Shown here piece after piece: positions 2,514 to 41,209 of a DNA stretch of 64,000 nucleotides. The notes under the pieces were generated by a model that was not told the DNA's origin, did not search any database, and saw only the letters and a program-made list of their open reading frames with translations. This DNA is from Beijerinckiaceae bacterium (GTDB taxonomy: Bacteria > Pseudomonadota > Alphaproteobacteria > Rhizobiales > Beijerinckiaceae), in NCBI GenBank assembly GCA_965276595.1, contig CBDIBA010000002.1, positions 2,802-66,801 on the forward strand. Direction: 5' to 3'. Positions within the stretch are counted from its first letter, which is position 1. Each line of letters begins with the position of its first letter. Both the position numbers and the translations under genes were made by a program.

Positions 2514-2741
2514 CTAGTCGCACCAAAATACGTTCCACCGCGGAACCGCGACGCGCGCAGCGTCGAAAGCATCGTTGACGAGATATTCCGGCAAATGGCC
2601 GTTGTCGTTCGGTTCGCGAATGATGAGCAGTTCGTTGGTTCGGCTTCGAAAGATGACCTGATGTTCCGTTGTTCCAATCTGCCGGAAGCCGATTGTTGCA
2701 AGATAGGTCACGATCTCGCCAAAATCGACACAGTAGATCAA
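2514..2741 (-). CDS. HicA-like toxin (putative)
   Basis: 75 aa. EIVTYLATIGFRQIGTTEHQVIF...HLPEYLVNDAF follows the HicA alpha-beta-beta-beta-alpha pattern with the conserved His. Confidence 0.5.
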   Translation of the reverse strand: MIYCVDFGEIVTYLATIGFRQIGTTEHQVIFRSRTNELLIIREPNDNGHLPEYLVNDAFDAARVAVPRWNVFWCD

Positions 2742-2743: not shown

Positions 2744-2959
2744 CTACGCAGCCGCGTCTTCGTATACCAGGTCGATTGCCTTCAACCGGCCGATGCTGTG
2801 ACCAGCGTCCGCGCGGCGAATGAAATCAAGCACGGCGACTGCGGCGCGCTCGGCTTCCTCTTCGGTCTTTCCGGTCACGTGAAAGCCGATGATGTCAGGC
2901 GAGGTCACGACGTGATACTCGCCGACTTTTTTGTGCTCGAGGCGAATGCGGCGATCCAT
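2744..2959 (-). CDS. Short HicB-like antitoxin (N-terminal domain only)
   Basis: YHVVTSPDIIGFHVTGKTEEEAERAAVAVL resembles the HicB N-terminal motif. Alternative start at 2977. Confidence 0.6.
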   Translation of the reverse strand: MDRRIRLEHKKVGEYHVVTSPDIIGFHVTGKTEEEAERAAVAVLDFIRRADAGHSIGRLKAIDLVYEDAAA

Positions 2960-3045
2960 TGACGTCTTTCGTTGCATTACCGAAATAAACTTGGCGACGA
3001 ACGGACGATATGTGGTCTGATCGCCCTAATAAATAGGAAATGTCT

Positions 3046-24015: not shown

Positions 24016-24021
24016 GCGGCC

Positions 24022-24933: not shown

Positions 24934-24945
24934 AGACGCCGCGGG

Positions 24946-25914
24946 TCAGTCGCGCGGACGATAGGGCTTCTGATCCCGCCAGCGCTTCATCAGGGCCTCG
25001 AGGTCGGGGTCGGGCGCCTCCGGCAGAACGATCTTCAGGCGCACCAGGAGGTCGCCCGCGCCGTTCGCGCCCGAAGCCGGCAATCCTTTGCCGCGCAGAC
25101 GCATGACGCGGCCGGAATTGCTGTTGGGCGGAACCGAGAGTTCGACGGCGCCGGTCAGCGTTCGGGTTTCCACCTTGCCGCCGAGCACCGCTTCATAGAG
25201 CGTGACCGGCAGATCGACGCGCAGGTCGCGGCCGACGATCTCGAACAGCGGGTGCTTGGCGACGCGCACCGTGATGATCGCGTCTCCGGCTTCGCCGCCG
25301 TGGGGGCTGATGGCGCCCTGGCTTTTCAGCCGGATCTGCTTGCCGTCCTCGATCCCGGCCGGAATCTTGACCTCGAGCGTGCGCCCGTTGGGCAGGATCA
25401 CCCGGGTGTCGCCGCCAAGCGCCGCCTGCTCCAGCGAAACGGTCACGGTTCCCGTCAGGTCGTCGCCGCGCGGCGGGGGCCGCGCCGCGCCGCGCGTGCG
25501 GCCGCCGAAGATGCCCTCGAAAAGATCGGACGGATCGAAGCCGCCGGCGCGCGCGCTTGCGCCTGGGTTGGGGCCGGGGCCTCCGGGAGCGCCGCCGAAA
25601 TTGAAGTCGAAATGCTCGAAGCCGCCCGCGCCGGCCTGCCGGCGGAAGCCGCCGCCGGGAGCGCCTGCGCCCAGCCCTTCGAAGCCGCGCGGCTTGCCTT
25701 CCGCGTCGATCTCGCTGCGATCGAACTGACCCTTCTTCTTCTCGTCGCCGAGGATTTCATAGGCGGTGTTGGCCTCGGCGAATTTCTCCTTCGCCTTCGG
25801 GTCGGTCTTGTTGTGGTCCGGATGGTATCTCTTCGCCAGCCGCCGGTAGGCCTTTTTGATCTCATCGGCGCCGGCGGATTTCCCCACCCCCAGGACGGTA
25901 TAAGGATCGCGCAT
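24946..25914 (-). CDS. DnaJ-class co-chaperone lacking the zinc finger (CbpA-like)
   Basis: J domain with HPD motif, G/F-rich linker, DnaJ C-terminal domain. Confidence 0.92.
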
Positions 25915-26083
25915 GCGGAGCCCACTCCAGCGCCCGCCCGTTGTGGCGCGGACGCAATGTCTCCGCCGCTATATGGTCCGGACGCGCGCGAGTCGCAAGG
26001 ATCGCGCCGGACAGGATCGCGCCGGGCGTTTGCGGGCGCATCCGCGCGGCTCTAAGCTCGCGCGATCGGGGAGGACGAGGGAC

Positions 26084-27367: not shown

Positions 27368-28749
27368 ACGAAGTCAACATCACTGATCTCGTCGACACGA
27401 CCAGGCTCCGGCCATTTCATCTCTGGCTGACGTTCTGGTGCCTGCTCGCGATGATGGCCGATGGGTTCGACCTGCTGAACGCCAGCATCGCGCTTCCCGC
27501 CATCATCAAGGAATGGCGCGTCAGCCCGAGCGCGCTCGGCCCGGTGTTCAGCGCCAGTCTGGCCGGCTTTCTCATCGGGGCGCCGTTCTTCGGGTGGCTC
27601 GGCGATCGGTTCGGCCGCCGCATCGCGATTATCAGCGGCCTGTTCTTGGTGGGCGGCACGACGCTGGCCTGCGCCTGGGCCACAAACCTTCAGGGGTTGT
27701 TCTGGCTACGCCTCCTGAGCGGTCTTGGCCTCGGCGGCGTGATTCCGAACGTGATCGCGCTCAACGCGGAATTTTCGCCGAAACGGCTGCGCGCCACGAT
27801 GCTGGTCGTCATGTCGGTGGGCATCTCGCTGGGCGGCGCCGTTCCGGGCGTCGTCGGAGCCACTCTGATGCCGACGTATGGCTGGCCGATCATCTTCGTC
27901 GTCGGCGGCGTCGTTCCGATCCTGGTGGGAGCCTGCCTGATCTTCGTCCTGCCCGAGTCGATCAAGTTCAGGGTGCTGCGCGGCGGCCAAGACGAAGCGG
28001 TAGGGCGCCTGGCGCGCAAACTCGATCCTGCCCTGATCGTCGGGCCGGAGACCCGGTTCGTCTTGAACAGCGAGGAGGGGAGCGCCCAGACGCGGGGTTC
28101 GCCCATCGCGCTTTTCCGCAACGGCTGGGCTCCGGTCACCGTGCTTGTGTGGCTGATCTTCGTCCTCAATCTCATGGCCAACAACTTGATGAACGCCTGG
28201 CTACCGATGATCGTCCAGAGCAGCGGGCGCAGCGCCGTAGAGGGGGCCTACGCCGGCTCGCTCTATCAACTCGGCGGCTCGGTCGGCGGCTTGTGCATCG
28301 GCGTTCTGATCGATCGCTTCGGGCTAAAAGTGCTGGTGGCGTTATTTCTGCTCGCCGTTCCGGTCGTCGCCTTCACCGGCGCTCCCGGCATCTCCGACTT
28401 GGTGTTGCTCTCGTTCGCCTTTTTTACCGGCTGCGTCGTGACCGGCATGCAGAACGGCCTTAACGCCGGAGCCGGCCTGATCTATCCCACCGCTCTGCGC
28501 GCCAATGGCGTCGGCTACGCCCTCGGCGTGGGGCGCCTCGGCTCGATCGCCGGGCCCCTGGTCGGCAGCCTGCTGGTGAGCCTGAAGGCGCCGACGGGCA
28601 TGTTTTTCTATGTCACCGCGGTCGAGCCGCTGTTGTGCGCGGGCTGCTGCGTCCTGCTGTTACGGCAGCTCCGCGTCGCGCGCGGGGAAACGGCGGGCGC
28701 GGCAGCGAGGGACGGCCGTCACGAATTGAGCTTGAATCACGGGCCTTGA
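27364..28749 (+). CDS. MFS aromatic acid:H+ symporter (PcaK/BenK-like)
   Basis: DGFD in TM1, LGDRFGRR, EFSPKRLRA, YPTALRANGVG.ALGVGRLG. Confidence 0.88.
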   Translation: MNEVNITDLVDTTRLRPFHLWLTFWCLLAMMADGFDLLNASIALPAIIKEWRVSPSALGPVFSASLAGFLIGAPFFGWLGDRFGRRIAIISGLFLVGGTTLACAWATNLQGLFWLRLLSGLGLGGVIPNVIALNAEFSPKRLRATMLVVMSVGISLGGAVPGVVGATLMPTYGWPIIFVVGGVVPILVGACLIFVLPESIKFRVLRGGQDEAVGRLARKLDPALIVGPETRFVLNSEEGSAQTRGSPIALFRNGWAPVTVLVWLIFVLNLMANNLMNAWLPMIVQSSGRSAVEGAYAGSLYQLGGSVGGLCIGVLIDRFGLKVLVALFLLAVPVVAFTGAPGISDLVLLSFAFFTGCVVTGMQNGLNAGAGLIYPTALRANGVGYALGVGRLGSIAGPLVGSLLVSLKAPTGMFFYVTAVEPLLCAGCCVLLLRQLRVARGETAGAAARDGRHELSLNHGP

Positions 28750-28774
28750 GCGCGTTCCGCGGGAGGAAAGAGCC

Positions 28775-29854
28775 ATGCAGACCTGGATCAAAAACGCCTG
28801 GCAGGTTGTCGCCTATCCTCACGAGATCGGCCGGACGCTGCTGGCGCGTCGCATTCTCGACGAACCGGTCGTGTTCTTCCGAACCGAGGCCGGCGCGATC
28901 GTCGCCATGGAGGATCGCTGCCCGCATCGGCTGGTTCGGCTGTCGCTGGGGCAGTTGAGCGGCGACCGGCTGCGCTGCGGCTACCATGGCCTTGAATTCG
29001 GGCCCGACGGCGTCTGCCGCCACGTCCCCGGACAGGATCGCATTCCCGCGAACGCGCGGGCCCGCGTCTATCCCGTCGTCGAGCGCCACAACGTGGTCTG
29101 GATGTGGACGGGCGACGCCGCCCTCGCCGATCCCGCTCTCGTGCCGGACATCCATTGGCTCGATCATCCCGGCTGGACGCCGAGCGCGGGCTATCATCAC
29201 ATGGCGTGCGACTTCCGTCTCGTGACGGACAACCTGCTCGATCTGTCGCACGAGACCTATGTCCATAAGCACACGATCGGCAACGCGGCCGTGGCGGACT
29301 CGCCGGTGCATGTGGAGCTCGATCGCGGACGCGTCATCCGGGCCCACCGCGAGATGCCCAACATCGATCCGCCGCCGTTTTTCTCGCGTCTGCTGGGCTA
29401 CGACGGACGCATCGATCGCTGGCAGACCGCGATCTACCTGCCGCCGGGGATTCACGTCACGGAGGCCGGATTTCACCCGGTGGGAGCCAATCGAAGCGGC
29501 GCGTTCGTGCATCGCGTGCTGCATCTCCTCACGCCGGAGACCGAACACAGCGCCCATTACTTCTGGGCGACGTGCCGCAACTATCGCCGCGACGACGAGG
29601 CGCTGACCCGCTACACGATCGAAGCGACGATGTTCACCTTCAACGAAGACAAGGCCATGCTGGAGCCGCAGCAGAAAGCGCTGCTCGAACTCGGAAGTCC
29701 GGACATCCCGCGCGTCACGATTTCCGTGGACGCCGCGCCCATCCAGGCGCGCAGGCTGCTCGCCAGGGCGGTCGAGGCCGAACTGGCGGACAGCCGTCGC
29801 GTTCAGCCTTTCGTCCCCGTCATCGAGGAAAGCTCGGAGCCGATCGCGGCGTGA
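28775..29854 (+). CDS. Rieske monooxygenase, VanA-like O-demethylase family
   Basis: KNAWQV, DRCPHR, CGYHGL, DNLLDLSHETYVH, F.EDK.MLE.QQ. Confidence 0.9.
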   Translation: MQTWIKNAWQVVAYPHEIGRTLLARRILDEPVVFFRTEAGAIVAMEDRCPHRLVRLSLGQLSGDRLRCGYHGLEFGPDGVCRHVPGQDRIPANARARVYPVVERHNVVWMWTGDAALADPALVPDIHWLDHPGWTPSAGYHHMACDFRLVTDNLLDLSHETYVHKHTIGNAAVADSPVHVELDRGRVIRAHREMPNIDPPPFFSRLLGYDGRIDRWQTAIYLPPGIHVTEAGFHPVGANRSGAFVHRVLHLLTPETEHSAHYFWATCRNYRRDDEALTRYTIEATMFTFNEDKAMLEPQQKALLELGSPDIPRVTISVDAAPIQARRLLARAVEAELADSRRVQPFVPVIEESSEPIAA

Positions 29855-29869
29855 CCGGCTCGCCCGGTC

Positions 29870-30910
29870 CTAACGCGCCGCCGGCGTGACGAGACGCTTC
29901 GCCCGCGCGACGACGTCTTTGGGCGTGGCGTAGACGCGCGCGATCAACGCCTGCGCGTCGGCGCCGCTCGTCGGCGAGATTTCCGCCATCATGGTCTTGC
30001 CGTCTTGCAGAAACGCCGGATCTTTCATCGTTTCGTCGAACCCGCGCCGCAACAGCTCGACCGCCCCCTTCGTCGTGTCGGGCGGCGCCGCGAAGGGCCG
30101 GCTCAGCGCCGTGCCCGCCACGAACATCGAGAGAAGCTGCTTGTCGGCGTCCGATTTCAAAAGATCGAAGATCAGCGGCGCGTCGCCCGCCCTCGGGCTC
30201 TTCTCCAAGCCGAGCTGCAGCAGGATGTTGATCTTGTGGTCGCGCAGCCAATCGGGCTTGGCGGCTTCGAGCGAGGACAGCGTGATCCCGCAGCGGCCGT
30301 TCACCTCGCCGTTCTCCATCGCCAGGAACGTCTCCTTCGAGCCGAGATAGCCGGTGATGATCTTGAATTTCGTGCCGATCGTGTCGTTGAGGATCAGCGG
30401 GAACGTGTCGGTCTCCGAGCCCGCGCCGGTGCCGGCGAGCTGCATGACCTTGGTTTTCGCGTCGTCGATCGTCTTGAACGGGCTGTCGGCCCACGCGATG
30501 CAAAGGCTCACGTCGCGGCTGATCGCGCCGATCCAGTTGAACGCGCTCATGTCGTAGCCGGGATTGCGGGCTCCGATCAGCGGCTCGATCAGCGGGCCGC
30601 CGGGAAACACCGCCAGCGCCGTCCCGTCCTTGGGCGCGCCTTTCGCGAGGAAATTGGCGGCGCGGATGCCGCCGGCGCCCGGCATGTCCTCCACGTTGAC
30701 GGCCGGCGAGCCGGGGATGCGACGGCCGAGATGGCGCCCGAGCAGCCGCGCGTAGAGGTCGACGCCGCCGCCCGCCGTCCCCGCGACATAGATCGTGATC
30801 GGCTTGCTGATCGTTTCTTGCGCGCTCGTGGCGGGCGGCGCCGCCATCGCCGCGCCCATCGCTACCCCGATGGCGCGGCCGGCCCAGCGCCCGCGAACCG
30901 TGCATCCCAT
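29870..30910 (-). CDS. Bug/TctC-type periplasmic substrate-binding protein (start uncertain)
   Basis: GTAGGGVDLYARLLGRHL, EDMPGAGGIRAANFL, LAMENGEVNG. Confidence 0.85.
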   Translation of the reverse strand: MGCTVRGRWAGRAIGVAMGAAMAAPPATSAQETISKPITIYVAGTAGGGVDLYARLLGRHLGRRIPGSPAVNVEDMPGAGGIRAANFLAKGAPKDGTALAVFPGGPLIEPLIGARNPGYDMSAFNWIGAISRDVSLCIAWADSPFKTIDDAKTKVMQLAGTGAGSETDTFPLILNDTIGTKFKIITGYLGSKETFLAMENGEVNGRCGITLSSLEAAKPDWLRDHKINILLQLGLEKSPRAGDAPLIFDLLKSDADKQLLSMFVAGTALSRPFAAPPDTTKGAVELLRRGFDETMKDPAFLQDGKTMMAEISPTSGADAQALIARVYATPKDVVARAKRLVTPAAR

Positions 30911-30985
30911 TGCGTTCCGCCCCGATGATCGTTGCGACGATCGTATCCTTACGGGCCGCGACGCGGCAAGCGCGCGCATCGACGC

Positions 30986-31801
30986 TCAATACCCGTGTTC
31001 GGCGGCCGGAAAGGCGCCGGTCTTCACGGCGTCCACATAGGCTTTCACCGCGCCCTCAATGGTGCCCGTCTCCGGAATGAAGTCTTTTACGAAACGCGGC
31101 CGCTTGCCGGGAAAGACGCCGATCATGTCGTGCAGAACGAGCACCTGCCCGTCGCAATCGGGCCCGGCGCCGATGCCGATCGTCGCCGTCCTCGTCATCG
31201 ACCGCGTCACGGCGGCCGCGACATCGGACGGCGTCATCTCGATGACCATCAGCGCCGCGCCCGCGTCTTCCAGCGCGCGCGCGTCAGCCTTCATCTGCGC
31301 CGCCGCCTCTTCGCCCTTGCCCTGCACGCGATAGCCGCCGAGTTGATGCACGGATTGCGGCGTCAGACCGATGTGCGCGCACACCGGCGCGCCGCGCTCG
31401 ACAAGAAAGCGCACGGTCTCGGCCATGTAGGCGCCGCCCTCGAGCTTCACCATCTGCGCGCCCGTGCGCATCAGCAGCGCGGCGTTGCGCATCGCCTGCT
31501 CGCGGCTCTCCTGATACGAGCCGAACGGCATGTCCGCGATGAGGAAGGCGCGTCTCATGCCTCGGAACACGCATTCCGTGTGATAGATCATCTGCTCCAG
31601 CGTGACGGCGAGCGTCGTCGGCAAGCCTTGAATGACGTTGCCGAGCGAATCGCCGACGAGCACCACGTCAACGCCGCAGCGGTCGAGCATCGCGGCGAAG
31701 CTGGCGTCGTAGCTCGTCAGCATGGCGATCTTCTCGCCGCGCGCGCGCATCTGCGCGAGGTCGCCGAGCTTCAAGGGCTTCAGGTCGTCGAGGTAGGCCA
31801 T
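30986..31801 (-). CDS. panB: 3-methyl-2-oxobutanoate hydroxymethyltransferase
   Basis: LTSYD, LVGDSLG, ADMPF, VKLEGG, HIGLTPQ, DGQVLV.HD. Confidence 0.96.
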
Positions 31802-31810
31802 GGCGTCGCC

Positions 31811-32668
31811 TTAGTCGCTCACCGCGACGTTGTCGATCAGCCGCGTGGCGCCGATGCGCGCCGCGCCGAGCAGGCGCCAGTCGCGAAGGGTCTGTCCGGC
31901 GATCGGCGCGCCGAGCGTTTGCGCATCGCGCAGCTCGACATAGTCGATCTCGAAGCCGGCGGCGGCGATCGCCGCGCTCGCCTCGTGCAAGGTCGGCTCG
32001 AGCGCCGCGCCCTGACGCAGACGCTCCGCCGCCGCGCGCAAGGCGCGGTAGAGGGCGGGGGCGCGCTCGCGCTGCGCGGGGTCGAGATAGGCGTTGCGCG
32101 AGGAGAGGGCGAGCCCGCTGGCTTCGCGCAGCGTCGGCGCGCCGACGATCTCGACGGGGATGTCGAGATCGCGAACCATCCGCCGGATCACCGCGAGCTG
32201 CTGAAAGTCCTTCTCGCCGAAGATCGCGGCATCGGGCGAGGCCTGCAGCAGCAGCTTCGCGACGACCGTCGCGACGCCTTGGAAATGCGTCGGCCGAAAC
32301 CGATCCTCCAGACCCGCGGCCGCCGGTCCTTGCGGCGCGATCGAGGTCGCGAAACCAGGCGGGTACATCTCGGCGGCGTCCGGATGGAAGGCGGCGTCGG
32401 CGCCCGCCGCCGCCAGTTTCGCGAGGTCGGCTTCGAAGGCGCGCGGATAGCGAGCGAAGTCTTCGTCCGGTCCAAATTGGGCCGGGTTGACGAAGATCGA
32501 AACGACGACGCGCGCCGCGCGCCGTCTCGCCAGCGCGACAAGCGAGACATGCCCGTCGTGCAGCGCGCCCATCGTCGGGACGAGCGCGATCGTCTCGCCC
32601 GCGGCGCGCCAGGCGCGGACGCGCGCGCGCAGGCGGCCGATCGTGCGGATGATCTCCGGCTGCGTCAT
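31811..32668 (-). CDS. panC: Pantoate--beta-alanine ligase
   Basis: VPTMGALHDGH, SIFVNPAQF, RPTHF.GV, FGEKDFQQ, GLALSSRN, RLIDN. Confidence 0.96.
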   Translation of the reverse strand: MTQPEIIRTIGRLRARVRAWRAAGETIALVPTMGALHDGHVSLVALARRRAARVVVSIFVNPAQFGPDEDFARYPRAFEADLAKLAAAGADAAFHPDAAEMYPPGFATSIAPQGPAAAGLEDRFRPTHFQGVATVVAKLLLQASPDAAIFGEKDFQQLAVIRRMVRDLDIPVEIVGAPTLREASGLALSSRNAYLDPAQRERAPALYRALRAAAERLRQGAALEPTLHEASAAIAAAGFEIDYVELRDAQTLGAPIAGQTLRDWRLLGAARIGATRLIDNVAVSD

Positions 32669-32707
32669 GGGCGCCTTTTCCGCTTAAATCGATCCGCTCG
32701 CAAGCCG
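32606..32707 (-). repeat. panC 5' end plus upstream sequence; copy attached to the intact gene
   Basis: 32628-32707 matches 34066-34145 at 77/80. The match extends to gcgccaggc (32606-32614 / 34053-34061) across a 9-bp indel. Confidence 0.95.
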
Positions 32708-34052
32708 CCATGCCTCTTGCGCCATGGCGAGGCCCCGAGCGAAAGACCCACGCGTCAGCCTGGAGCGGACGGCAGCGCGCTGCAGTTGCTCGTCGCCGGC
32801 GCGCCCTCGAAGCGCTCCCGCACCCAGGCGACCGCGTCGTCGTTCCCTTGCTCCACAATGGATTCGTGATCGGCAGTCGGGAATAGCCGATAAAGCAACT
32901 CGTTTCCGTTCGCGCACAGCTTGCGGGCGACGGCGTCGGTGGTGGACGGCGGAACCGTGACGTCCGCGCCGCCCTGCATGATGAAGGTGGGCGCAGCGAT
33001 ACGCAGACCGCCAGGATCGTTCGCAGCGGCCAGTTTGAGGACCGCCGAGAGATCGGCGCCGGGCAGGAACTGATCCTTCGGGACCGCCGTGGCCCAATAG
33101 CCCTTGGACAGCGTTGGCGACACGCACTCCTGCCGGGTCTGCGCCAGGTGGGCGAGAGCCTGCGGGCTTAGGATGCGGCCGAGGTCGATACCGGGATGGT
33201 TGGATGCGACCGACTGCAGGAAGTACATCGCGTAGATCAGCGCACCCGAGGGTTGCGAGGCTGTTGTCAGCCCCTGGATACGGCCTCCCATGTCGGACGC
33301 CGGCGCGAAGGCGACGTTCCCGAGAAGCGTCAGATCCGGCGCATAGGAGGGTCCAAACCGAGCCGTGAACAGGTCCGCCTGGCCGCCTTCCGAGTGACCC
33401 ATGACGACGTAGCGCGCGCCGACGCCCGGATCGATCTGGCGCGCCGCGCGCATGATATCGAGCGCCCCCCGGGCCTCCGCTTCGCCTTGCAGGAACGGAT
33501 GGATGTCGCCGCCCGTCACGCCGAGGCCCTGGAAGTCGCTGAAGACCACCGCGTAGCCCTGCCGCACGAATTGATCGAGTCTCGATCGGCTCGGTCCGAG
33601 ATAGTAGTGTTCCGTGCTGTCCGGCGTGTCGAGGGACGGGGCGCATGCGGGCGACAGGCCGGTGGTCCCATGCGTCCAGGTGATCAGCGGCCATCCGCCC
33701 GCCGGCGGCGCGCCGCGCGGGACGGAGAGCGTTCCGGAAACGGCGATGGGCGCGCCATCGAGCCTTCGCGATTGATACAGGACGAGCAGGTTGCGCGCGG
33801 CGCTCGGCAGGGAGACGTCCGCGGCCGCGTCCCTCGCCCAGATCGCTGCGCCGTGCTCTGCATTGGGAAGCGGAGATGGCGGGACATAGAACGCCATCCC
33901 CGCCGGCCCTTCGGAAACCTGAGCCGCTTCCGCGCTTGAATCCGTTACGAGAGCGCACATCGCGAGAATGAGCGGGACCGTGCGAAAGACGTTCAATCTC
34001 ATGGCGCTTTTCCGTTGCAAGGTCTGGAAGGAGCCCGGCCTCGTCAGCGATT
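32708..34052. mobile_element. Single-gene islet (lipase) between panC 5' repeats; no integrase
   Basis: Bounded by the duplicated panC 5' end. Confidence 0.65.
32755..34002 (-). CDS. Secreted lipase/alpha-beta hydrolase (LIP secretory lipase-like)
   Basis: Signal peptide, WTHGTTG, GHSEGG nucleophile elbow, QGGAD, DH catalytic region. Confidence 0.88.
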   Translation of the reverse strand: MRLNVFRTVPLILAMCALVTDSSAEAAQVSEGPAGMAFYVPPSPLPNAEHGAAIWARDAAADVSLPSAARNLLVLYQSRRLDGAPIAVSGTLSVPRGAPPAGGWPLITWTHGTTGLSPACAPSLDTPDSTEHYYLGPSRSRLDQFVRQGYAVVFSDFQGLGVTGGDIHPFLQGEAEARGALDIMRAARQIDPGVGARYVVMGHSEGGQADLFTARFGPSYAPDLTLLGNVAFAPASDMGGRIQGLTTASQPSGALIYAMYFLQSVASNHPGIDLGRILSPQALAHLAQTRQECVSPTLSKGYWATAVPKDQFLPGADLSAVLKLAAANDPGGLRIAAPTFIMQGGADVTVPPSTTDAVARKLCANGNELLYRLFPTADHESIVEQGNDDAVAWVRERFEGAPATSNCSALPSAPG

Positions 34053-34145
34053 GCGCCAGGCCCGTCGCAGGCGGCCGATCGTGCGGATGATCTCCGGCTG
34101 CGTCATGCGCGCCTTGTCCGCTTAAATCGATCCGTTCGCAAGCCG
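34053..34145 (-). repeat. Truncated panC 5' stub (MTQPEIIRTIGRLRRAWRNR*)
   Basis: Homologous to 32606-32707. Confidence 0.95.
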
Positions 34146-34259
34146 GCTTTCCCGTCGGGCGGCGGCGCGCGGCGCGCGAATCTTTCGCTTGTCGCTGGCG
34201 CGAGCGGGGTCCACAATCGCGTGAAAGACTGCGCCAAGCGCAGCGGCCGGGAGGATCGA

Positions 34260-35942
34260 ATGCCAATCGCCAAAGATCTCGCGCGCGCTCTGGGCGCGGT
34301 CGTCTGCCTGTCGGCGCCGACGCTGGGGCTGGCGCAGCAGGCGACGCTGCATGGCGAGGCGCGGTCGGACCGCGAGGGTCTCATGGAAGGCGTCGTGGTG
34401 AGCGCCGCGCGCGAAGGCTCGACCATCGCCTACAGCGTCGTGACCGACGATCATGGCCGCTACAGCTTCCCGCCCGGCCGCTTGGCGCCCGGATCCTACA
34501 AGATGTCGATGCGCGCGACGGGCTACGACCTCGCCGCGCCGGTGGCGGCGACGGTCGCCGAAGACGGCGACGGCGCCGCCGATCTCAAACTCGTGCCGAC
34601 GAAGGATCTCGCCGCCCAACTCACGAGCGCGGAATGGCTCGCCAGCGTCCCCGGCTCGGACGCGCAAAAGAAGCTGCTGCTGAACTGCACCGACTGCCAC
34701 ACGATCGAACGCATCGTGCAGTCTCAGCACACCCCGCAGGAGTTCGAGCAGGTCTTCGAGCGGATGTCGGGCTATTATCCCGGCGCCTCGCCCGAGCAGC
34801 CGCAGCGGCTCGTCGGCGACGCGCGCAGGCCGGCCGTCCCGCCCAACCGCGTGAAGGAGTTTTCCGAATATCTGGCGAGCATCAATCTCAGCGCCACCGA
34901 GGCGCATCCCTACGAGCTGAAGGCCTTCCAGCGGCCAAAGGGACGCGCCACCCGCGTCTTCATCACGGAATACGCGCTGCCGCGAAAGGTCATTCAGCCC
35001 CACGACGTCGTGGTCGATAAGGACGGGATGGTCTGGTACTCGAATTTCGAGGAGCAGTACCTTTCGAAATTGGATCCCAAGACCGGGAAGGTGACCGAAT
35101 TTCCCATCGCCGAGCAGAAGAAGGGATTTCCGACCGGCACGCTCGACCTCGAGACCGACGCGGACGGGAATTTCTGGCTCGGCCTGATGTATCAGACGGG
35201 CGTCGCGAAATTCGATCCCAAGAGCGAGACCTTTCGTTACTACCCGCTTCCCGCCGACTGGCAGACCAATCTGACGCAGCAGGCGCATCTGTCGCCCGCG
35301 GCGAGCAAGGTCGACGGCAAGATCTGGATCAAGGATTCCGACCGGTCGCAAATCCTGCGGCTCGACGTCGCGACGGGCCAATACGAGAAGCTCGGAACCA
35401 TGAAGGATCCGGCCAATCGTCCGGTCAGCGTGTATGGGATCGCCGCCGACCGCGACAACAACGGCTACCTTCTCGACTTCGTCGGCGGCAGCATCGGCAG
35501 GATCGACGCGAAGACGCAAGCCTTCACGGTCTTTCCGACCCCGACCGCGGGCGCGCGGGCGCGGCGCGGACGCTTCGATGCGCAAAATCGCCTCTGGTTC
35601 GGCGAATACGGCACGAACGCCATCGGCATGTTCGACGCGAATACGCATCAGATGCGTGAATGGACGATGCCGTTGCCCTGGGAGCAGCCCTACGACGTGG
35701 CGTTCGATCGGAGCGGGGCGGCCTGGACCGGCTCCGTCATGTCGGATCGCGTCTCGCGCCTCGACGTCAAGACCGGCGAGTTCGCCGAATATCTGATGCC
35801 CCGGCCGACCAACATCCGGCGCGTCTTCGTCGACGACAACGCGAAGCCCGCCGCCTTTTGGGTCGGCAGCGACCACGGCGCCTCGATCGTCAAGGTGGAG
35901 CCGCTCGACATTCCCGGCGAACCCCTGGCGCCGGCGCGATAG
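34260..35942 (+). CDS. Periplasmic protein: carboxypeptidase-regulatory-like domain + c-type heme motif + Vgb-like beta-propeller
   Basis: Signal peptide; VVTDDHGRYSFP; CTDCH at 34686-34700; repeated PHDV..DKDG.VWY / D..G..W propeller blades. Confidence 0.8.
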   Translation: MPIAKDLARALGAVVCLSAPTLGLAQQATLHGEARSDREGLMEGVVVSAAREGSTIAYSVVTDDHGRYSFPPGRLAPGSYKMSMRATGYDLAAPVAATVAEDGDGAADLKLVPTKDLAAQLTSAEWLASVPGSDAQKKLLLNCTDCHTIERIVQSQHTPQEFEQVFERMSGYYPGASPEQPQRLVGDARRPAVPPNRVKEFSEYLASINLSATEAHPYELKAFQRPKGRATRVFITEYALPRKVIQPHDVVVDKDGMVWYSNFEEQYLSKLDPKTGKVTEFPIAEQKKGFPTGTLDLETDADGNFWLGLMYQTGVAKFDPKSETFRYYPLPADWQTNLTQQAHLSPAASKVDGKIWIKDSDRSQILRLDVATGQYEKLGTMKDPANRPVSVYGIAADRDNNGYLLDFVGGSIGRIDAKTQAFTVFPTPTAGARARRGRFDAQNRLWFGEYGTNAIGMFDANTHQMREWTMPLPWEQPYDVAFDRSGAAWTGSVMSDRVSRLDVKTGEFAEYLMPRPTNIRRVFVDDNAKPAAFWVGSDHGASIVKVEPLDIPGEPLAPAR

Positions 35943-35947
35943 AGCTT

Positions 35948-36093
35948 CGCGCCGCCCCTAACCCTCTCCCCGCAGGCGGGGAGAGGGGACGCATCGAGCG
36001 CGTCATCGGCGAGCGATGCCGATTCGCATGAGTGGGCGCGGCAGCGCTCCCTCTCCCCGTTGCGACGGGGAGAGGGCCGGGGTGAGGGGCGAA
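35948..36093. repeat. Inverted pair of family A REP-like hairpins between convergent genes
   Basis: The left part matches 4390-4458 and the right part matches 17408-17459. Confidence 0.88.
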
Positions 36094-36146
36094 AGATCGT
36101 CGAGCGCATCATCGGCTAGCGTCGTCATGTATGGACACTCGATCGG

Positions 36147-36815
36147 CTAACAGCACTCGTCCAGCAGTTCGGCGAGGCCTGTCAGCGTCCGCGCGGGCGC
36201 AAGATCGAAATATTCGTCTGGCAGACCGGTCCGGTTGATCCACACGCCGCGAAACCCCGCGCGAACCGCGCCCGCGATGTCCCAGCGGTTCGACGACTGG
36301 AAGGAGACGTCGCTCGCCGCCACGCCCAGGCGCCGCGCAACGAGCGCGTAGGCCGACGGCGCCGTCTTGAAGGCGCCGATCTCGTCGATCGAGAGGCAGG
36401 CGTCGAGAACGCCGTCGAGACCCGCCGAGGCGGTGGCGCTAGCAAGCATGTCGGGCGTCCCGTTCGAGAGGATGGCGACCCCAGCCCCTGCGTCCTTCAG
36501 CGCGCGCAGGGTCGGCCGCGCATCCGGGAACGCGTCGAGCGTGTCGTAGGCGGCGAGCAGAGCCGCACGGGTTTGCGGCGACAGGCCGCCGCATTGCGCG
36601 CTCGCGTAATCGAGCGACAGCGCGGTGAGGTCGCGGAAGTCGCGGTAGGCGCCCATCAGGGTGCGGGTCCAGGTGTATTCAAGCTGCTTCAGGCGCCAGA
36701 TCTCGGACAGGCGGTCCGCGTGCGGCCCGATGGCGTCGCGATGCCGCGCCACGGCCGAATGCACGTCGAACAGCGTGCCGTAGGCGTCGAAGACGTAGGC
36801 GCGGTAGACAGCCAT
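36147..36815 (-). CDS. Haloacid dehalogenase type II
   Basis: VFDAYGTLFDV, WRLKQLEY, ILSNG, FKTAP, QSSNRWDIAGA. Confidence 0.92.
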   Translation of the reverse strand: MAVYRAYVFDAYGTLFDVHSAVARHRDAIGPHADRLSEIWRLKQLEYTWTRTLMGAYRDFRDLTALSLDYASAQCGGLSPQTRAALLAAYDTLDAFPDARPTLRALKDAGAGVAILSNGTPDMLASATASAGLDGVLDACLSIDEIGAFKTAPSAYALVARRLGVAASDVSFQSSNRWDIAGAVRAGFRGVWINRTGLPDEYFDLAPARTLTGLAELLDECC

Positions 36816-36839
36816 GGCGCTCTCCCGGCGCGCCTGGCC

Positions 36840-38375
36840 TCACGCGCGGCGCGGCCGCGCGAGCCGAACGCCCAGCGCGCGCAGCGCGACGGCCAGCGCC
36901 GCAGCATAGACGATCGCGCCGGCGGCGCCGAGAAGAACGAGCCCGACCTCCGCGCGCAGCACGCCGATGGCGTCGGCGGCGGCCATCGCGGGCGCCCGGC
37001 CCGCCAGCGCGACGAAGGCCAGCGCGACGCAGGCGATGGCGACCGCGGCGCAGACGCGCCACAAGGTCGGGTCGGGCCGCATCAGCTTGCGGCGCAGCGC
37101 CAGCGCCACGAGGACGACGACGTTGATCCACGCGCCGACGGCGGTCGCCATGGCGAGGCCCGGCGCGCCGAACGGCTTGTAGAGCGCGACCTTCAGCGCG
37201 ACGTTCAACGCCACGGCGGCGAGCGAGACCAGCATCGGCGTGCGCGTGTCGCCTTTCGATTGGAAGCTCGCGCGCGCCGAGGCGATGAGCACGATCGCCA
37301 TCAGCCCCACGCCATAGGCGGCGAGCACCGCGGCGGAGGATTCGGCGGCGGCCTCGGTGAAGCGGCCGCGGAGGAATACGCCGCGCATGATGTCGAGCGG
37401 GATCGTGAGGAACGCCACGAAGAACGGCGCGCCGAGCGCGATGGTGAGCGCCATGGTGCGGTTCTGCGCATGAAAGGCCGCGCCGTCGTCGCCCGCCGCG
37501 AAGCGCCGGCTCATCTCGGGCAGCAGCACGGAGCCGGCCGCGATGCCGATGACGCCGATGGGAAGCTGATAGATGCGGTCCGCATAGTAGATCGAGGACA
37601 CCGCGCCGGTCGGCAACAGGGACGCGATGATCGTGTCGGCGAAGAGCGCGATCTGGAACCCGGCCGAGCCGATGACGGCGGGCGCCAGCGCCGCGAAGAA
37701 TTGCCTTGTGTCGCGCGTCCAGCGCGGCCGCGTGAGCCCGCCGAAGGCCCGCGCGCGCTTCGCCGCGATGACGATGAAGACGAGTTGCGCCGCGCCCGAC
37801 AGCGTGACGGCGACGGCGGACGCGTAGGCCGCGTCGGGAAAAAGATAGGCGAGCGGCAGGACGACGATCATCGCGAGGTTCAGCAGAACGGGCGCGAAAG
37901 CGCCGGCGGCGAAGCGGCGATGCGCATTGAGCGCGCCCGTGTGCAGCGTGACGAGGGTGACGAACAGAAGATAGGGGAACGTGATGCGCGTCAGCGAGAC
38001 GGCGAGCGCGAACTTCGTCGGGTCGTCTTCGAAGCCCGGCGCCAGAAGCCGCACCAGCTCCGGGGTGAAGGCGAGCGCGAGCGCGAGCACGACGATCTGC
38101 GACAGCGCGAGCAGCGTCAGCACCTGGCCCGAGAAGGTCCGCGCCTCATCGCCGCCTTGCGCTTCGAGCACCCGCGAATAGGTCGGCACGAAGGCGGCGT
38201 TGAAGGCGCCTTCGGCGAAGATCGCGCGGAAGTGGTTGGGCAGGCGGAAGGCGACATAGAAGGCGTCGGCGAGCAGGCCGGCGCCGAGGACCGCGCCGAG
38301 CATGACGTCGCGCAAGAAGCCGGTCGCGCGCGACAGCAGCGTCAGGGTCGCCACCGAAAAGAGATTGCGATACAT
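36840..38375 (-). CDS. murJ: Lipid II flippase MurJ/MviN
   Basis: LLSRATGFLRD, AFRLPNHFR.IFAEGAF..AFVP, YYADRIYQLPIG. Confidence 0.95.
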   Translation of the reverse strand: MYRNLFSVATLTLLSRATGFLRDVMLGAVLGAGLLADAFYVAFRLPNHFRAIFAEGAFNAAFVPTYSRVLEAQGGDEARTFSGQVLTLLALSQIVVLALALAFTPELVRLLAPGFEDDPTKFALAVSLTRITFPYLLFVTLVTLHTGALNAHRRFAAGAFAPVLLNLAMIVVLPLAYLFPDAAYASAVAVTLSGAAQLVFIVIAAKRARAFGGLTRPRWTRDTRQFFAALAPAVIGSAGFQIALFADTIIASLLPTGAVSSIYYADRIYQLPIGVIGIAAGSVLLPEMSRRFAAGDDGAAFHAQNRTMALTIALGAPFFVAFLTIPLDIMRGVFLRGRFTEAAAESSAAVLAAYGVGLMAIVLIASARASFQSKGDTRTPMLVSLAAVALNVALKVALYKPFGAPGLAMATAVGAWINVVVLVALALRRKLMRPDPTLWRVCAAVAIACVALAFVALAGRAPAMAAADAIGVLRAEVGLVLLGAAGAIVYAAALAVALRALGVRLARPRRA

Positions 38376-38381
38376 CGCCGA

Positions 38382-39398
38382 TCAGATCCGCCGCGATTGC
38401 GACCGGGGCGTGGGGTCGAGCGGCGCCTGCGCGTCGGCGCCGATGCGCTCGCCGATGAGATAGAGCGGGCGGCGTTTCACTTCGGCGAAGATGCGGCCGA
38501 TATATTCTCCGAGCACGCCGAGCGAGAGCAGCTGAACGCCGCCGAGGAACATCACCGAGACGATGAGCGAGGCGAAGCCGGGCGTGTCGACGCCGTAGAT
38601 GACCGTCTCCAGCACGAACCGCAGCGCGGTGAGGATCGCGATCAGCGAGACCGCGGTGCCGATATAGGTCCACACCATCAGCGGCATGGTCGAGAAGGAC
38701 ATCAGCCCGTCGAGCGCGAAGCGCGTCAGCTTGCGGTAGCTGAACTTCGACTGGCCCGCGGCGCGCTCGGCGACGGCGAAGGGCACGCCCGTCGATTTGA
38801 AGCCGATCCAGGCGTAGAGGCCTTTCGAGAAGCGGGCGCGCTCCGGCATTGAACGCAGCGCCAGCACGGCGGCGCGATCGAGAAGGCGGAAGTCGCCGGC
38901 GCCTTCCGGCAGCGACGTTTCGCCGAGCGCCGCGAACGTCTTGTAGAAACGCCGCGTGAACATCCGGCGCAACGCGCTGTCCGTCGAGCGGTCGATGCGC
39001 TGGCCGTAGACGTTCTTATAGCCTTCGCGCCATTTCGCGACGAACGTCTCGATGGTTTCCGGCGGGTGCTGCAGGTCGGCGTCCATGATGACGACCGCCG
39101 CGCCGTCGGCGTGGTCGAGACCGGCGGCGATCGCGATCTCCTTGCCGAAGTTGCGCGAGAACGACAGCGCGACCGCGCGGGGATCGGCGGCGTTGATCGC
39201 GCGCAGCGCGGCGAGCGTGGCGTCGCGCGAGCCGTCGTCGACGAAGATGATCTCGTGGGTGGCGACGAGGCGCTCGAGCAGCGGCGTCAGCCGCGCGACC
39301 AAGGGCGCGACGTTCTCCGCTTCGTTGTAGACGGGAACGATCACGCTCAGTTCGACTGACGGCTGGGCGTGCGCCGCAACCCCTTCCATCGCGTTCAT
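38382..39398 (-). CDS. Glycosyltransferase family 2 (GtrB/ArnC-like, polyprenol-phosphate type)
   Basis: IVPVYNEAEN, VDDGSRD, SRNFGKE, MDADLQHPP, two C-terminal TMs, GEYIGRIF.EVK.RP. Confidence 0.92.
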   Translation of the reverse strand: MNAMEGVAAHAQPSVELSVIVPVYNEAENVAPLVARLTPLLERLVATHEIIFVDDGSRDATLAALRAINAADPRAVALSFSRNFGKEIAIAAGLDHADGAAVVIMDADLQHPPETIETFVAKWREGYKNVYGQRIDRSTDSALRRMFTRRFYKTFAALGETSLPEGAGDFRLLDRAAVLALRSMPERARFSKGLYAWIGFKSTGVPFAVAERAAGQSKFSYRKLTRFALDGLMSFSTMPLMVWTYIGTAVSLIAILTALRFVLETVIYGVDTPGFASLIVSVMFLGGVQLLSLGVLGEYIGRIFAEVKRRPLYLIGERIGADAQAPLDPTPRSQSRRI

Positions 39399-39480
39399 GC
39401 GATCGGACCTCCAGCGTCGGCGTCGCCGACGCCGCCCTGCCTAGGCAAGCGCGCGCGGGAACGCAACCATGACGATCCGT

Positions 39481-41088
39481 TTACGCCGCCTCGCGGATGA
39501 GGTCGGCGGCCTTCTCGCCGATCATCAGCACGCAGGCGTTGATGTGCGCCGAAACGAGGTCGGGCATGGCGGACGCATCGACGACGCGCAGGCCGTCGAT
39601 CCCGCGCAGCCGCAGCGAGGCGTCGAGCGGCGACAGCGCATCCTCGCCCATGCGGCACGTGCTGCTCGGATGATGCGCGGTCAGCGCGGTGCGGCGGATC
39701 ATCGCCTCGATCTCCGCATCGGTGCGGCACGCCGGGCCGGGCGAGACCTCCGCGGCGCGGTAGGGCGCCATCGCCGGCTGCTCGCCGACCTCGCGCGCCG
39801 CCTTGAAGCCGGCGACGAGACGCGGCATGTCCGGCGGCGCCGAAAAGAAATTGTAGCAGATGCGCGGCGGGTCGCGCGGATCGGCCGAGCGCAGCAGGAT
39901 TTCGCCGCGGCTTTCGGGGTGCAGCAGCGTCGGGCGGATGCCGTAGGCGTCCTGATAGGCTTTCACGATCCCCGGAAACCACAGGCCCGTCTGGGGGGGC
40001 ACCGTGTGGAACATGAACTCGATGTCGGGCACCGCGACGCTCTTGTCGATCTTGACGAAGGCGTGCAGGCCGCCGGGAACCACCGTCGCCGGTCCCGAGC
40101 CGAAGGCGTAGGCGCGCAGCATGCTGAGCGCGATGCGGTCGAACCGCATTTCCTTGTGGAAGCGGCCGGGCGACTTGCGAGTCCAGGTGATCCAGACGCC
40201 GAGATGGTCCTGCAGATGCTTGCCGACGCCCGGCGCATCGAGCACCGGCGCGACGCCCATCGCCTTGAGATGGTCGGCCGGCCCGATGCCCGACAGCATC
40301 AGAAGATGCGGCGTGTTGAACGAGCCGGCCGACACGATGACCTCGCGCTCGGCGCGGACCGTCGACACGACCGAGTCCTTGACGTAGTCGACGCCGGTCG
40401 CCCGCTTGTTCTGCGTCGCGACTTTGAGCGCATGGGCGCGCGTCTCGATCGTCAGGTTGCGGCGGCCGCGGATCGGCCGCAGATAGGCGCGCGCCGAAGA
40501 CGAGCGCCGGCCGTCGCGGATCGTGAACTGGCCGCGGCCAAACCCCTCCTGCTGCTGCGCGTTGTAGTCGGGCGTCACGGGAAAGCCGGCTTGCTCGCCG
40601 GCCTGCGACCAGGCGTCGAAGATCGTGTCGGGCGTCTTGGCGAATTGCGTGCCGACGGGTCCGTCGCCGCCGCGGAACTGGTCCATGCCGGCCTCGAACG
40701 TCTCGCCGCGCCGAAAGTAGGGCAGTACGTCGCCATAGGACCAGTTCTTCGCGCCGTTGCGCGCCCAGCGGTCGAAATCGCCGGGGTTGCCGCGCGTATA
40801 AGCCATCACGTTGACGGAGGAACTGCCGCCCATGACCTTGCCGCGCATCGCTTCGAGACGCCGCCCGTCAAGACCGGTCTCGGGCTCGGTTTCGTAGCCC
40901 CAGTCATGCAGCCGGTATTGATGCATCTTGCCCATGCCGAGCGGGATCGAAATGAGCGGGTCGACGTCGCGGCCGCCCGCTTCGAGCAGCAGCACGCTGA
41001 CGCCGGGGTCTTCCGACAGGCGCGCGGCGAGCACGCAACCTGCCGATCCTGCGCCGACGATCACGTAGTCATAGGCCCGCGCGCTCAT
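39481..41088 (-). CDS. GMC oxidoreductase (choline dehydrogenase-like family)
   Basis: VIVGAGSAG, RGKVMGGSSSVN, HLQDH, HHPSSTCRMG, VVDASAMP. Confidence 0.93.
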   Translation of the reverse strand: MSARAYDYVIVGAGSAGCVLAARLSEDPGVSVLLLEAGGRDVDPLISIPLGMGKMHQYRLHDWGYETEPETGLDGRRLEAMRGKVMGGSSSVNVMAYTRGNPGDFDRWARNGAKNWSYGDVLPYFRRGETFEAGMDQFRGGDGPVGTQFAKTPDTIFDAWSQAGEQAGFPVTPDYNAQQQEGFGRGQFTIRDGRRSSSARAYLRPIRGRRNLTIETRAHALKVATQNKRATGVDYVKDSVVSTVRAEREVIVSAGSFNTPHLLMLSGIGPADHLKAMGVAPVLDAPGVGKHLQDHLGVWITWTRKSPGRFHKEMRFDRIALSMLRAYAFGSGPATVVPGGLHAFVKIDKSVAVPDIEFMFHTVPPQTGLWFPGIVKAYQDAYGIRPTLLHPESRGEILLRSADPRDPPRICYNFFSAPPDMPRLVAGFKAAREVGEQPAMAPYRAAEVSPGPACRTDAEIEAMIRRTALTAHHPSSTCRMGEDALSPLDASLRLRGIDGLRVVDASAMPDLVSAHINACVLMIGEKAADLIREAA

Positions 41089-41209
41089 CCCGTTACGCCC
41101 TTTCCATCGCGCGATGCGCCGCGCCTCGCGCAATTTGACAACCCCTAGGCCCGCTGGCAACCTCGCGCGACAACAACGCGACAGAAGTCGAGGCGAGGGG
41201 AAGCGACCG

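Follow-up and report, generated by a model that had tools for sequence, protein, structure and literature searches.

A lipase gene lies between two copies of the panC start in a Beijerinckiaceae genome

Known bacterial transposons generate target-site duplications of 2–15 bp. Small variable segments are common in bacterial genomes, and in E. coli, S. aureus and S. pyogenes the repeats flanking such segments are mostly shorter than 30 bp (PMC2884548). NHEJ capture of heterologous DNA by Ku/LigD has been shown experimentally in a Rhizobiales species (PMC6379672). Here we describe a secreted-type lipase gene flanked by direct copies of the start of panC within a 64,000-nucleotide stretch of a Beijerinckiaceae genome (the window). 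Like illegitimate-recombination insertions (NHEJ capture at double-strand breaks and homology-facilitated illegitimate recombination, HFIR), the insert is a bare gene lacking mobility genes, inverted repeats or an att core, in a host belonging to Hyphomicrobiales/Rhizobiales; unlike the described cases, which leave small deletions or microhomology joints, the window holds target duplications of about 100 bp at panC and 61 bp at a second gene. Site-specific integrative islands and cis-mobilisable elements (CIMEs; attL/attR) share with this locus direct repeats containing the end of a housekeeping gene, with the intact gene on one side, a stub on the other and accessory cargo between them, but the present insert is a single gene with no integrase and its target is a 5′ end with a promoter rather than a tRNA or a 3′ end. 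Direct target repeats around inserted DNA likewise recall transposon or IS insertion, from which the locus differs in the 61- and ~100-bp duplications and in having neither transposase nor terminal inverted repeats.

A repeat search of the window returned a direct repeat of 102 nt at 87% identity (32628–32729 versus 34066–34167; spacing 1438), and BLAST delimits within it a core of 80 nt (32628–32707 versus 34066–34145) at 96.25% identity with 3 mismatches (E = 3e-29), inside which 42 nt are exactly identical. Gapped alignment continues past the core, where the distal copy lacks 9 nt, into 13 nt matching at 11/13 positions, so that the homologous span covers 32606–32707 (102 nt) in the proximal copy and 34053–34145 (93 nt) in the distal copy. 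Repeat search, BLAST and gapped alignment thus agree with an initial annotation of this DNA, which described 80-bp copies with 3 mismatches extending across a 9-bp indel. That annotation placed about 40 bp upstream of the ATG inside the copies; we find about 39 nt, both copies corresponding to panC −39 to +63. The minus-strand order it gave is also borne out, running from a stub through the lipase gene (34002–32755) and panC (32668–31811) to panB (31801–30986), with the lipase gene just upstream of the two vitamin B5 genes. The proximal copy, on the minus strand, consists of the pan spacer (−39 to −1) and nucleotides 1–63 of intact panC, which encodes pantoate-beta-alanine ligase (PF02569, E = 1.7e-101) and is followed by the ketopantoate hydroxymethyltransferase gene panB (PF02548, E = 3e-108). 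The distal copy, on the same strand, holds the pan spacer and a truncated panC start which, by gapped alignment and comparison with relatives, carries a 9-bp deletion and derived substitutions.

Comparison with related genomes polarizes the rearrangement. In all five of the closest relatives (panC 67–72% identical), genes are ordered GMC-GT2-MurJ-HAD-panC-panB, the lipase gene is absent and HAD and panC are separated by 38–48 bp. The same flanking order (GMC oxidoreductase-GT2-MurJ-HAD ... panC-panB) is held in the window, where about 3.4 kb breaks the block: palindromic elements, a Vgb-lyase-like gene on the opposite strand, then the stub and the lipase gene. Because HAD and panC lie together without the lipase in all five relatives, the window arrangement is derived; an arrangement ancestral across the family, which the initial annotation had set against its own reading, is contradicted by the same 5/5 adjacency. 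Its proposal that the lipase gene was placed behind the original pan upstream region stands in part: the insertion does lie behind the ancestral spacer copy, but the 'region' amounts to only the ~45-bp spacer, with HAD a further ~2 kb away. The HAD hydrolase gene (36147–36815, minus strand), identified by domain match and by synteny with relatives as the gene that ancestrally lay immediately upstream of panC, is separated from the spacer by a gene for a Vgb_lyase-like/CarboxypepD_reg secreted beta-propeller, assigned by domain match (34260–35942, plus strand), and by two palindromic REP-like elements (CCCTCTCCCCG..CGGGGAGAGGG; 35956–36124) between the 3′ ends of these two genes. When metagenomes were scanned for the Vgb-like protein, the best match reached 54% identity and none was linked to the lipase gene or to panC; in L101/L102 the Vgb-like homologue does have panB nearby, which looks coincidental. 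We found no relative with panC identity above 72%, whether with an empty or a filled site, and searching metagenomes for the coding pattern of the panC N terminus returned no match. In GTDB genomes, the best panC identity among the matches listed was 63%, with no near relative among them.

The distal copy opens a 20-codon reading frame, and translation of 34106–34044 on the minus strand yields MTQPEIIRTIGRLRRAWRNR*, the 20-aa stub ORF of the initial annotation. Its codons 1–14 are perfectly conserved relative to panC, a frame-preserving deletion follows and the stop derives from lipase-associated DNA, the TGA falling within sequence homologous to the 5′ UTR of the L081 lipase gene. Asked which copy resembles the panC upstream sequence of relatives, the data divide. 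The ancestral left edge AAAG(T/C)CGGCTTGCG is retained by the distal copy alone (AAAGcC at 34146–34151), whereas the ancestral continuation into panC is retained by the proximal copy, which follows the relatives wherever they agree, including the A at −11 in 5/5, and which matches L087 at 15/15 positions in GAAAAGGCGCCCATG and L170 at 15/15 positions from +49 to +63. Of the differences between the copies, those that can be polarized are derived in the stub copy: A>C at −11, loss of the 9 bp and, near +54, C>G. Since the polarizable changes are derived in the stub, the stub is decaying in place, and a donor allele, offered earlier as one source of the divergence, is not needed.

Between the copies lies about 1345 bp of inserted DNA (32708–34052, minus strand), comprising the lipase coding sequence with about 48 nt of its own 5′ UTR and RBS and 46 nt of 3′ flank. 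The lipase gene is the only ORF in the insert, which contains no integrase, transposase or terminal inverted repeats. DNA homology to lipase homologues spans the coding sequence and UTR and ends there, and the RBS/UTR motif GGAA(A/C)AGCGCC-ATGAGA is common to the window gene and L083/L081. The nearest homologues (73–85%) occupy four unrelated contexts, one of them adjoining ICE/plasmid genes (DUF736, RovC, HTH_17, RPA and ParA), and none of the homologue loci has flanking direct repeats, indicating that the lipase gene does not recur as a repeat-flanked cassette. In one and the same database the top homologue of the lipase is 83–85% identical and that of panC 72%, and the GC3 of the lipase gene is 0.80, while the host averages 0.87 (sd 0.035). 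Matches to the lipase in a plasmid database were only distant (<37%), and no recorded sequence was found to match the window lipase exactly. From these comparisons we infer that the lipase gene was acquired horizontally.

The encoded protein of 415 aa (32755–34002, minus strand) is a LIP-family (CalA/LipA-like) lipase/esterase predicted to be secreted. It matches PF03583 over residues 145–406 (75.4 bits versus a cut-off of 23, E = 6e-21), and its PDB sequence matches are 3h2g, 2veo and 3guu. An AF2 model (pLDDT 92.6, pTM 0.90) retrieved 2veo_A (E = 1.4e-23, TM 0.74) and 3h2j (E = 3e-20) in Foldseek; the predicted fold aligns at TM 0.74 to 2veo/3guu and 0.66 to 3h2j/3h2g. The nucleophile motif GHSEGG occupies residues 202–207, and S204, D347 and H379 are invariant in a 60-sequence homologue alignment; by position and analogy, these residues are assigned as a candidate Ser-Asp-His triad. 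A signal-peptide-like N-terminal segment was read by eye as MRLNVFRTVPLILAMCALVTDSSAEA/AQ, and residues 1–28 have low pLDDT. The Pfam match, the predicted fold and the conserved Ser (GHSEG), Asp and His establish membership of the LIP/CalA-like secretory lipases, with an alpha/beta-hydrolase core and a cap; these features and the signal-like N terminus are shared with Candida antarctica lipase A (2veo/3guu) and Xanthomonas oryzae LipA (3h2g), although identity to the solved CalA/LipA structures is only 16–19%. The enzyme may act as a lipase or as a cell-wall/cutin-type esterase.

An assembly artefact was raised in the initial annotation as a possible source of the repeat. Logan contigs from runs X1–X3 match each copy's two unique flanks at 100% identity (4/4 arms), and the 42-mer common to both copies forms a separate unitig at a depth of 5–6 versus 2–3 for the arms; a core at about twice arm depth fits two genomic copies, and its recurrence with all four arms in three independent run assemblies argues against an artefact. 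The contigs from these runs all end inside the 42-nt exact core, so the arms cannot be linked across it, and the organism is covered at a depth of only ~3x; in addition, run X4 holds a ~98% relative for which 4/7 high-identity pieces fall within the lipase gene. Such observations would suit a true genome reading Vgb-like gene–spacer–panC without the lipase, the lipase gene and one repeat copy belonging instead to a separate circular or tandem molecule or to another strain and having been mis-joined across the core. We consider this very unlikely, as all four arms have equal depth in each of the three runs, the other pairing of arms requires a 1438-bp circle without a replication function, the copies differ on either side of the core and are resolvable by any assembler with k > 42 or by read pairs, and a single contig (32640–34095) joins decayed distal panC sequence to the lipase 5′ UTR.

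The repeated segment includes a candidate pan promoter, present in the proximal copy at 32676–32703 (minus strand) as TTGCGA at −35 to −30 and CGGAAA at −13 to −8 from the A of the ATG, and in the distal copy at 34114–34141 (minus strand) with A>C in the −10-like hexamer. The geometry CTTGCG-N17-hexamer-N7-ATG is conserved in relatives L084, L170, L087, L089 and L172, and would yield a leaderless mRNA. The window candidate, with its −10-like hexamer CGGAAA, is weak and fails a consensus scan; neither a consensus sigma-70 promoter nor a terminator was found in 30.9–36.9 kb, and the Rfam search gave no match. A hairpin at the 3′ end of the insert (CGCCATG..CATGGCG; 32708–32731, minus strand) lacks a U-tract and was not called a terminator; with z = −1.5, the fold across the junction between the lipase 3′ flank and the repeat does not reach significance. 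The lipase gene and panC lie on the same strand across an 86-nt gap with no intrinsic terminator found, making co-transcription of the lipase gene with panCB plausible. Only by its geometry is the stub a candidate leader ORF. Looking for the features expected of leader-peptide or uORF attenuation, we found the stub stop 41 nt ahead of the lipase ATG, folding from stub to lipase no better than that of shuffled sequences (z = −0.2), no terminator and no Rfam family. Arrangement on one strand with short gaps and no terminator, together with the perfect conservation of the first 14 stub codons, would also suit an ancestral or old, functional, designed stub–lipase–panCB operon in which the stub serves as a regulatory leader peptide and from which relatives lost the lipase. 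That history is most improbable given HAD directly upstream of panC in five relatives from at least four lineages, a stub that is the cut-down N terminus of a catalytic protein, carries a deletion and follows a mutated −10-like element, the lack of any attenuator-like structure and the absence of pan linkage in the lipase homologue contexts examined.

The window contains a second event of the same architecture, in which a toxin-antitoxin-like pair sits in a pyrC-like gene between perfect 61-bp copies (61/61). The initial annotation suggested that the panC event might be the older of the two, which is supported by the identity of the pyrC-like copies versus 3 mismatches in the panC core. The toxin-antitoxin-like insert is clearly foreign (GC3 0.63–0.69 versus a host mean of 0.87). 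Its homologues are only ~70% identical at the DNA level and lack flanking repeats, giving no evidence of a mobile unit, and a plasmid database held no match for the insert. A distant donor would be an improbable source of an identical 61-bp anchor; one could, however, be carried by an element that had previously excised from the same pyrC-like site. Among other loci totalling 1.42 Mb, a census of short-range direct repeats yielded about 11, of which two were inspected and looked different in kind: one is probably a tRNA-associated att duplication, and in the other the repeats enclose a small gene. Enrichment of such repeats in the window relative to other loci is suggestive, the numbers being small.

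We favour, with moderate confidence, a history in which a horizontally gained lipase gene was integrated by illegitimate recombination that duplicated the panC start and its promoter. The ancestor carried HAD, a ~45-bp spacer and panC-panB within the GMC oxidoreductase-GT2-MurJ-HAD-panC-panB block. A complete accessory lipase gene now lies 63 nt within the former panC, flanked by a direct duplication of panC −39 to +63; the downstream copy runs on into intact panC, and the upstream copy is the stub, which has since lost 9 bp and gained at least two derived substitutions. The recombination was probably not site-specific and would have duplicated about 100 bp of target, possibly when a double-strand break with staggered ends was repaired (Ku/LigD end-joining capture followed by fill-in is one such route) or through replicative template switching; the insert junctions show no obvious or informative microhomology. 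Because panC is regenerated together with its spacer, only duplicating events would survive at panC. Functionally, the duplicated spacer would carry the pan promoter, its TTG lying exactly at −35 and its hexamer at −13 to −8 being rich in A, with the distal copy driving the stub and lipase gene and the proximal copy still driving panCB, to which lipase read-through would add because no terminator intervenes.

The duplication might instead reflect homology brought by the incoming DNA, either a lipase-spacer-panC5′ fragment or circle from a sister strain, recombining with the resident panC through HFIR (homologous on one side, illegitimate on the other) or a Campbell-type single crossover, or the attL/attR of a CIME-like site-specific islet whose integrase was lost or acts in trans. 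The proximal copy begins only ~7 nt into the ancestral spacer, placing the lipase gene almost exactly at the former HAD stop, a position explained equally well by incoming lipase-spacer-panC from a sister strain; the same HAD/spacer junction also took the Vgb-like block, suggesting a hot spot. Divergence of 3–4% between copies could be allelic, one lipase homologue sits on an ICE/plasmid-like segment and HFIR is established in several bacteria (PMC2884548, PMC3240628). Against this, no tyrosine or serine recombinase is encoded between the repeats or in 29–41 kb, although a trans-acting integrase encoded elsewhere in the genome is possible; the polarizable differences all lie in the stub, as decay in place predicts and a donor allele does not; the lipase gene adjoins panC in none of the lipase or panC contexts examined; and the sister event is 61/61 identical around DNA of very different composition. 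No donor with the lipase gene beside a pan spacer appeared among the lipase contexts examined, in a sample with no close relatives, nor did panC relatives and database matches include another genome with an insert at panC. On balance, we regard homology carried in with the lipase gene as unlikely. Integration with target duplication, as favoured above, may in turn be one instance of a route recurrent in this lineage, by which compact cassettes without mobility genes (one lipase gene; one toxin-antitoxin-like pair) enter housekeeping genes a short way past their 5′ ends, with long target duplications (61 and ~100 bp). Such a route might involve end-joining capture at long-staggered, transcription-start-associated breaks or the insertion of transcript-sized units, and the lipase insert, extending from ~48 nt before the ATG to the hairpin 46 nt beyond the stop, may be compared with such a unit; at present, we view this generalization as a long shot.

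Taken alone, the lipase/panC case is a tidy and fairly ordinary scar of foreign-DNA integration with modest biological consequences. It offers a clean natural example of a single foreign gene taken up inside an essential-pathway operon with the operon kept, in which the duplicated promoter and gene start would leave panC intact and hand the newcomer a ready-made expression signal. Two like-built events of different ages within 64 kb make this genome a reasonable place to ask whether long duplications mark an integration pathway, with stress-induced NHEJ in soil alphaproteobacteria as one example to consider. If a recurrent route proves true and general, it would constitute a distinct mode of gene acquisition in which the newcomer is automatically given a copy of a host promoter.

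A direct-repeat search placed the longest short-range direct repeat of the window at the start of panC (32628-32729 and 34066-34167; 102 nt, 87% identity, spacing 1438), and BLAST defined an 80-nt core of 96.25% identity (E = 3e-29). In a gapped alignment all three core mismatches (−30, −11 and −2) lie within the 39 nt 5′ of the ATG, and after 41 identical coding nucleotides the distal copy lacks 9 nt, beyond which 13 more nucleotides match at 11 of 13 positions; the homologous span is thus panC −39 to +63, at 32606-32707 in the proximal copy at intact panC and at 34053-34145 in the distal copy. The distal copy translates to a 20-codon truncated panC start, MTQPEIIRTIGRLRRAWRNR and a stop (the stub; 34106..34044, minus strand), succeeded on the same strand by a lipase gene (34002..32755), panC (32668..31811) and panB (31801..30986). 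The alignment, BLAST and coordinates bear out the initial annotation, which had described this gene order and 80-nt copies with three mismatches, about 13–22 bp of further similarity across a 9-bp indel, and about 40 bp of sequence upstream of the ATG.

The nearest panC among 5.8 billion proteins is at best 72% identical, and a metagenome scan found the window's panC N-terminus in no contig. Five distinct relatives (67–72%) all share the order GMC oxidoreductase–GT2–MurJ–HAD hydrolase (HAD)–panC–panB, with 38–48 bp from the HAD stop to the panC ATG. The minus strand of the window repeats this gene order (GMC oxidoreductase, 41160..39481; GT2, 39398..38382; MurJ, 38375..36840; HAD, 36815..36147; then panC and panB), with about 3.4 kb of REP-like elements, a Vgb-lyase-like gene, the stub and the lipase gene between HAD and panC. 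Because HAD directly adjoins panC in all five relatives, the window arrangement is derived, contrary to the possibility raised beforehand that it is ancestral across the family. HAD–panC spacers of the window (32669-32707 and 34107-34145) were compared with those of relatives (loci L084, L087, L089, L170 and L172). Every relative reads AAAG(T/C)CGGCTTGCG directly after the HAD stop, and the distal copy has this sequence too; in the proximal copy the similarity starts only at CGGCTTGCG, and what precedes it is the lipase 3′ flank. The 9 nt absent from the stub are present in all relatives and the proximal copy, position −11 is A in every relative and the proximal copy and C in the stub, and around +54 a 15-nt stretch of the proximal copy matches L170 perfectly, unlike that of the stub; the two remaining mismatches sit at positions variable among relatives. 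This comparison, proposed in the initial annotation, matches the left flank to the distal copy and the right flank to the proximal copy, and indicates that each has kept that ancestral flank, with the derived changes in the stub. The pattern is the signature of insertion with target duplication, after which the non-functional copy decayed, and a donor allele, once suggested as the source of divergence, is not required as the stub carries derived changes. Structurally, we conclude with high confidence that this is a derived, HGT-type duplicative insertion.

The region is present in three sequencing runs of one sample (X1–X3), whose independently built contigs reproduce all four arms at 100% identity, including the panC side as far as the core, the Vgb-side arm and one contig that covers the lipase gene completely, starting in the proximal spacer and reaching into the decayed stub (32640-34095/34107). 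These contigs end at the exact 42-nt core and do not join the arms across it, as would also be seen if the assembly had merged an empty site with a separate 1438-bp lipase circle. The core forms its own unitig at depth 5–6 versus 2–3 for every arm, as two genomic copies predict, and the sole alternative pairing implausibly needs such a circle at equal depth; together the four arms and core depth make an assembly artefact, another refutation named in advance, highly improbable. An unrelated 2021 run, X4, contains a relative about 98% identical at depth about 2 (compared over window 23000-42999). The 1.25-kb lipase gene contains four of its seven high-identity pieces, possibly because this gene also occurs in another, more abundant genome of that run.

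At the DNA level, homology with the closest lipase genes (85%, 80% and 75%) is restricted to the coding sequence, weaker similarity reaching about 48 nt upstream across the RBS region GGAA(A/C)AGCGCC-ATGAGA, a stretch in which the stub's terminating TGA falls, and little similarity to homologue loci exists 3′ of the stop. These limits delineate an insert of about 1345 bp (32708-34052) that comprises a single gene with very short flanks and terminates in a hairpin lacking a U-tract. It contains no inverted repeats and encodes neither a transposase nor an integrase, and the feature was rejected as a transposon (no transposase or inverted repeats) and as an integrase-borne island (no integrase). 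The closest lipase homologues occupy four unrelated neighbourhoods, one adjoining ICE/plasmid genes, and no flanking repeats were found at their loci. The lipase GC3 of 0.80 is at the low end of the host range (0.87, s.d. 0.035), and its best homologue, 83–85% identical, is nearer than any housekeeping homologue; horizontal acquisition is the economical reading. At locus L091 (4209-10456), a 73%-identical homologue lies next to genes of ICE/plasmid type (YAcAr, DUF736, RovC/DUF2285, HTH_17, replication protein A and ParA), which shows the lipase family travelling on conjugative elements. The lipase gene encodes 415 aa, with a signal-like segment at the N-terminus, and its product matches PF03583 (secretory lipase) at 75 bits and, by sequence, the LipA esterase of Xanthomonas oryzae and lipase A of Candida antarctica. 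Its confident AlphaFold model (pLDDT 92.6) has CalA (TM 0.74) and LipA as top PDB matches, and its Ser (GHSEGG), Asp and His residues are invariant across 60 homologues; these results support its prediction as a secreted lipase/esterase.

Spacer geometry is fixed clade-wide (CTTGCG, 17 nt, A-rich hexamer, 7 nt, ATG), setting TTG at exactly −35 to −33 and the hexamer at −13 to −8, counted from the A of the ATG, and the 9-mer CGGCTTGCG is likewise clade-conserved. These features suggest a candidate promoter for a leaderless panC mRNA; the window's own hexamer is weak (CGGAAA), and a consensus scan of the region returned no promoter. If the promoter reading is right, the upstream edge of the repeat would coincide with the −35 element, both copies would hold the whole promoter, and the distal copy, with its −10-like element now mutated, would drive the stub and lipase. 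Read-through from lipase into panC is plausible, since no terminator was found between them. An Rfam family search and a fold test of the stub–lipase region gave no support for an attenuator role, and the stub/lipase feature was rejected as a leader-peptide attenuator on its defining tests.

A Vgb-lyase-like/CarboxypepD_reg beta-propeller gene (34260-35942, plus strand; best homologue 54%) and two palindromic REP-like elements (35956-36124) are inserted precisely where the HAD stop and the pan spacer would otherwise meet, so the HAD/panC junction has been hit at least twice. At 34147-34190 (minus strand), AGCGAAAG matches the relatives' sequence after the HAD stop, and a 30-nt GC-rich segment follows before a second GAAAG joins the spacer; this stretch may hold a small extra insertion with a 5-nt duplication. 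REP-like palindromes, CCCTCTCCCCG(N2-4)CGGGGAGAGGG, are intergenic at 4410-4435, 17336-17361, 17415-17442, 35962-35987 and 36049-36076 (six strand-matches at three sites versus 0.01 expected), embedded in longer repeats at 4404-4458/35956-36010 (91%) and 17389-17490/36023-36124 (82%). Elsewhere, a low-GC island (~5200-9300; 57–61% versus ~69%) carries an ssu-like set of ABC permease, ABC ATPase, luciferase-like monooxygenase and NMT1/sulfonate-type binding protein genes, with no integrase seen.

A perfect 61-bp repeat (2302-2362 and 3046-3106), covering −6 to +55 of a pyrC-like amidohydrolase gene, encloses a 683-bp AT-richer segment of foreign composition (GC3 0.63–0.69). Its weak HicB-like ORF (2977..2744, minus) and 75-aa partner (2741..2514, minus) form a conserved two-gene unit on the opposite strand that recurs as a pair at loci L167–L169, in homologues too divergent to reveal whether the pair moves as a recurrent unit. 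This sister event has the same architecture as the lipase/panC event and is younger, its copies being identical at 61 of 61 positions, in agreement with the earlier relative dating. Perfect identity between the copies, around an insert of such alien composition, makes it unlikely that a distant donor supplied the duplicated sequence as a homologous anchor. Integration probably duplicated a stretch of the recipient's own DNA, and homology brought by an element earlier excised from the same site is possible.

Since the sister duplication probably arose in this way, we favour by analogy a de novo long target duplication at the lipase, a reading to which we give nearly even weight: a long-staggered break repaired with captured foreign DNA could yield such a duplication, and replicative template switching could be an alternative route. 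For Sinorhizobium meliloti, capture of heterologous DNA by NHEJ has been described in a study that did not report long duplications (PMC6379672). Homology might instead have been carried by the incoming DNA, through homology-facilitated illegitimate recombination, Campbell-type integration or att sites. The proximal copy begins about 7 nt into the spacer, at the same junction as the Vgb-like block, hinting at a hot spot or a sister allele with lipase–spacer–panC; but no recombinase was found in or next to the repeat-flanked segment and no donor with that arrangement among the lipase and panC loci compared, and the polarity, with changes derived in the stub, and the perfect 61-bp sister event also count against this route, which we regard as unlikely. 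Whatever its route, the lipase/panC feature behaves like an insertion by illegitimate recombination that duplicated its target. It is quite doubtful that a distinct, recurrent integration route underlies both events, and the only unusual aspect is the recurrence of ~100-bp and 61-bp duplications in one 64-kb window.
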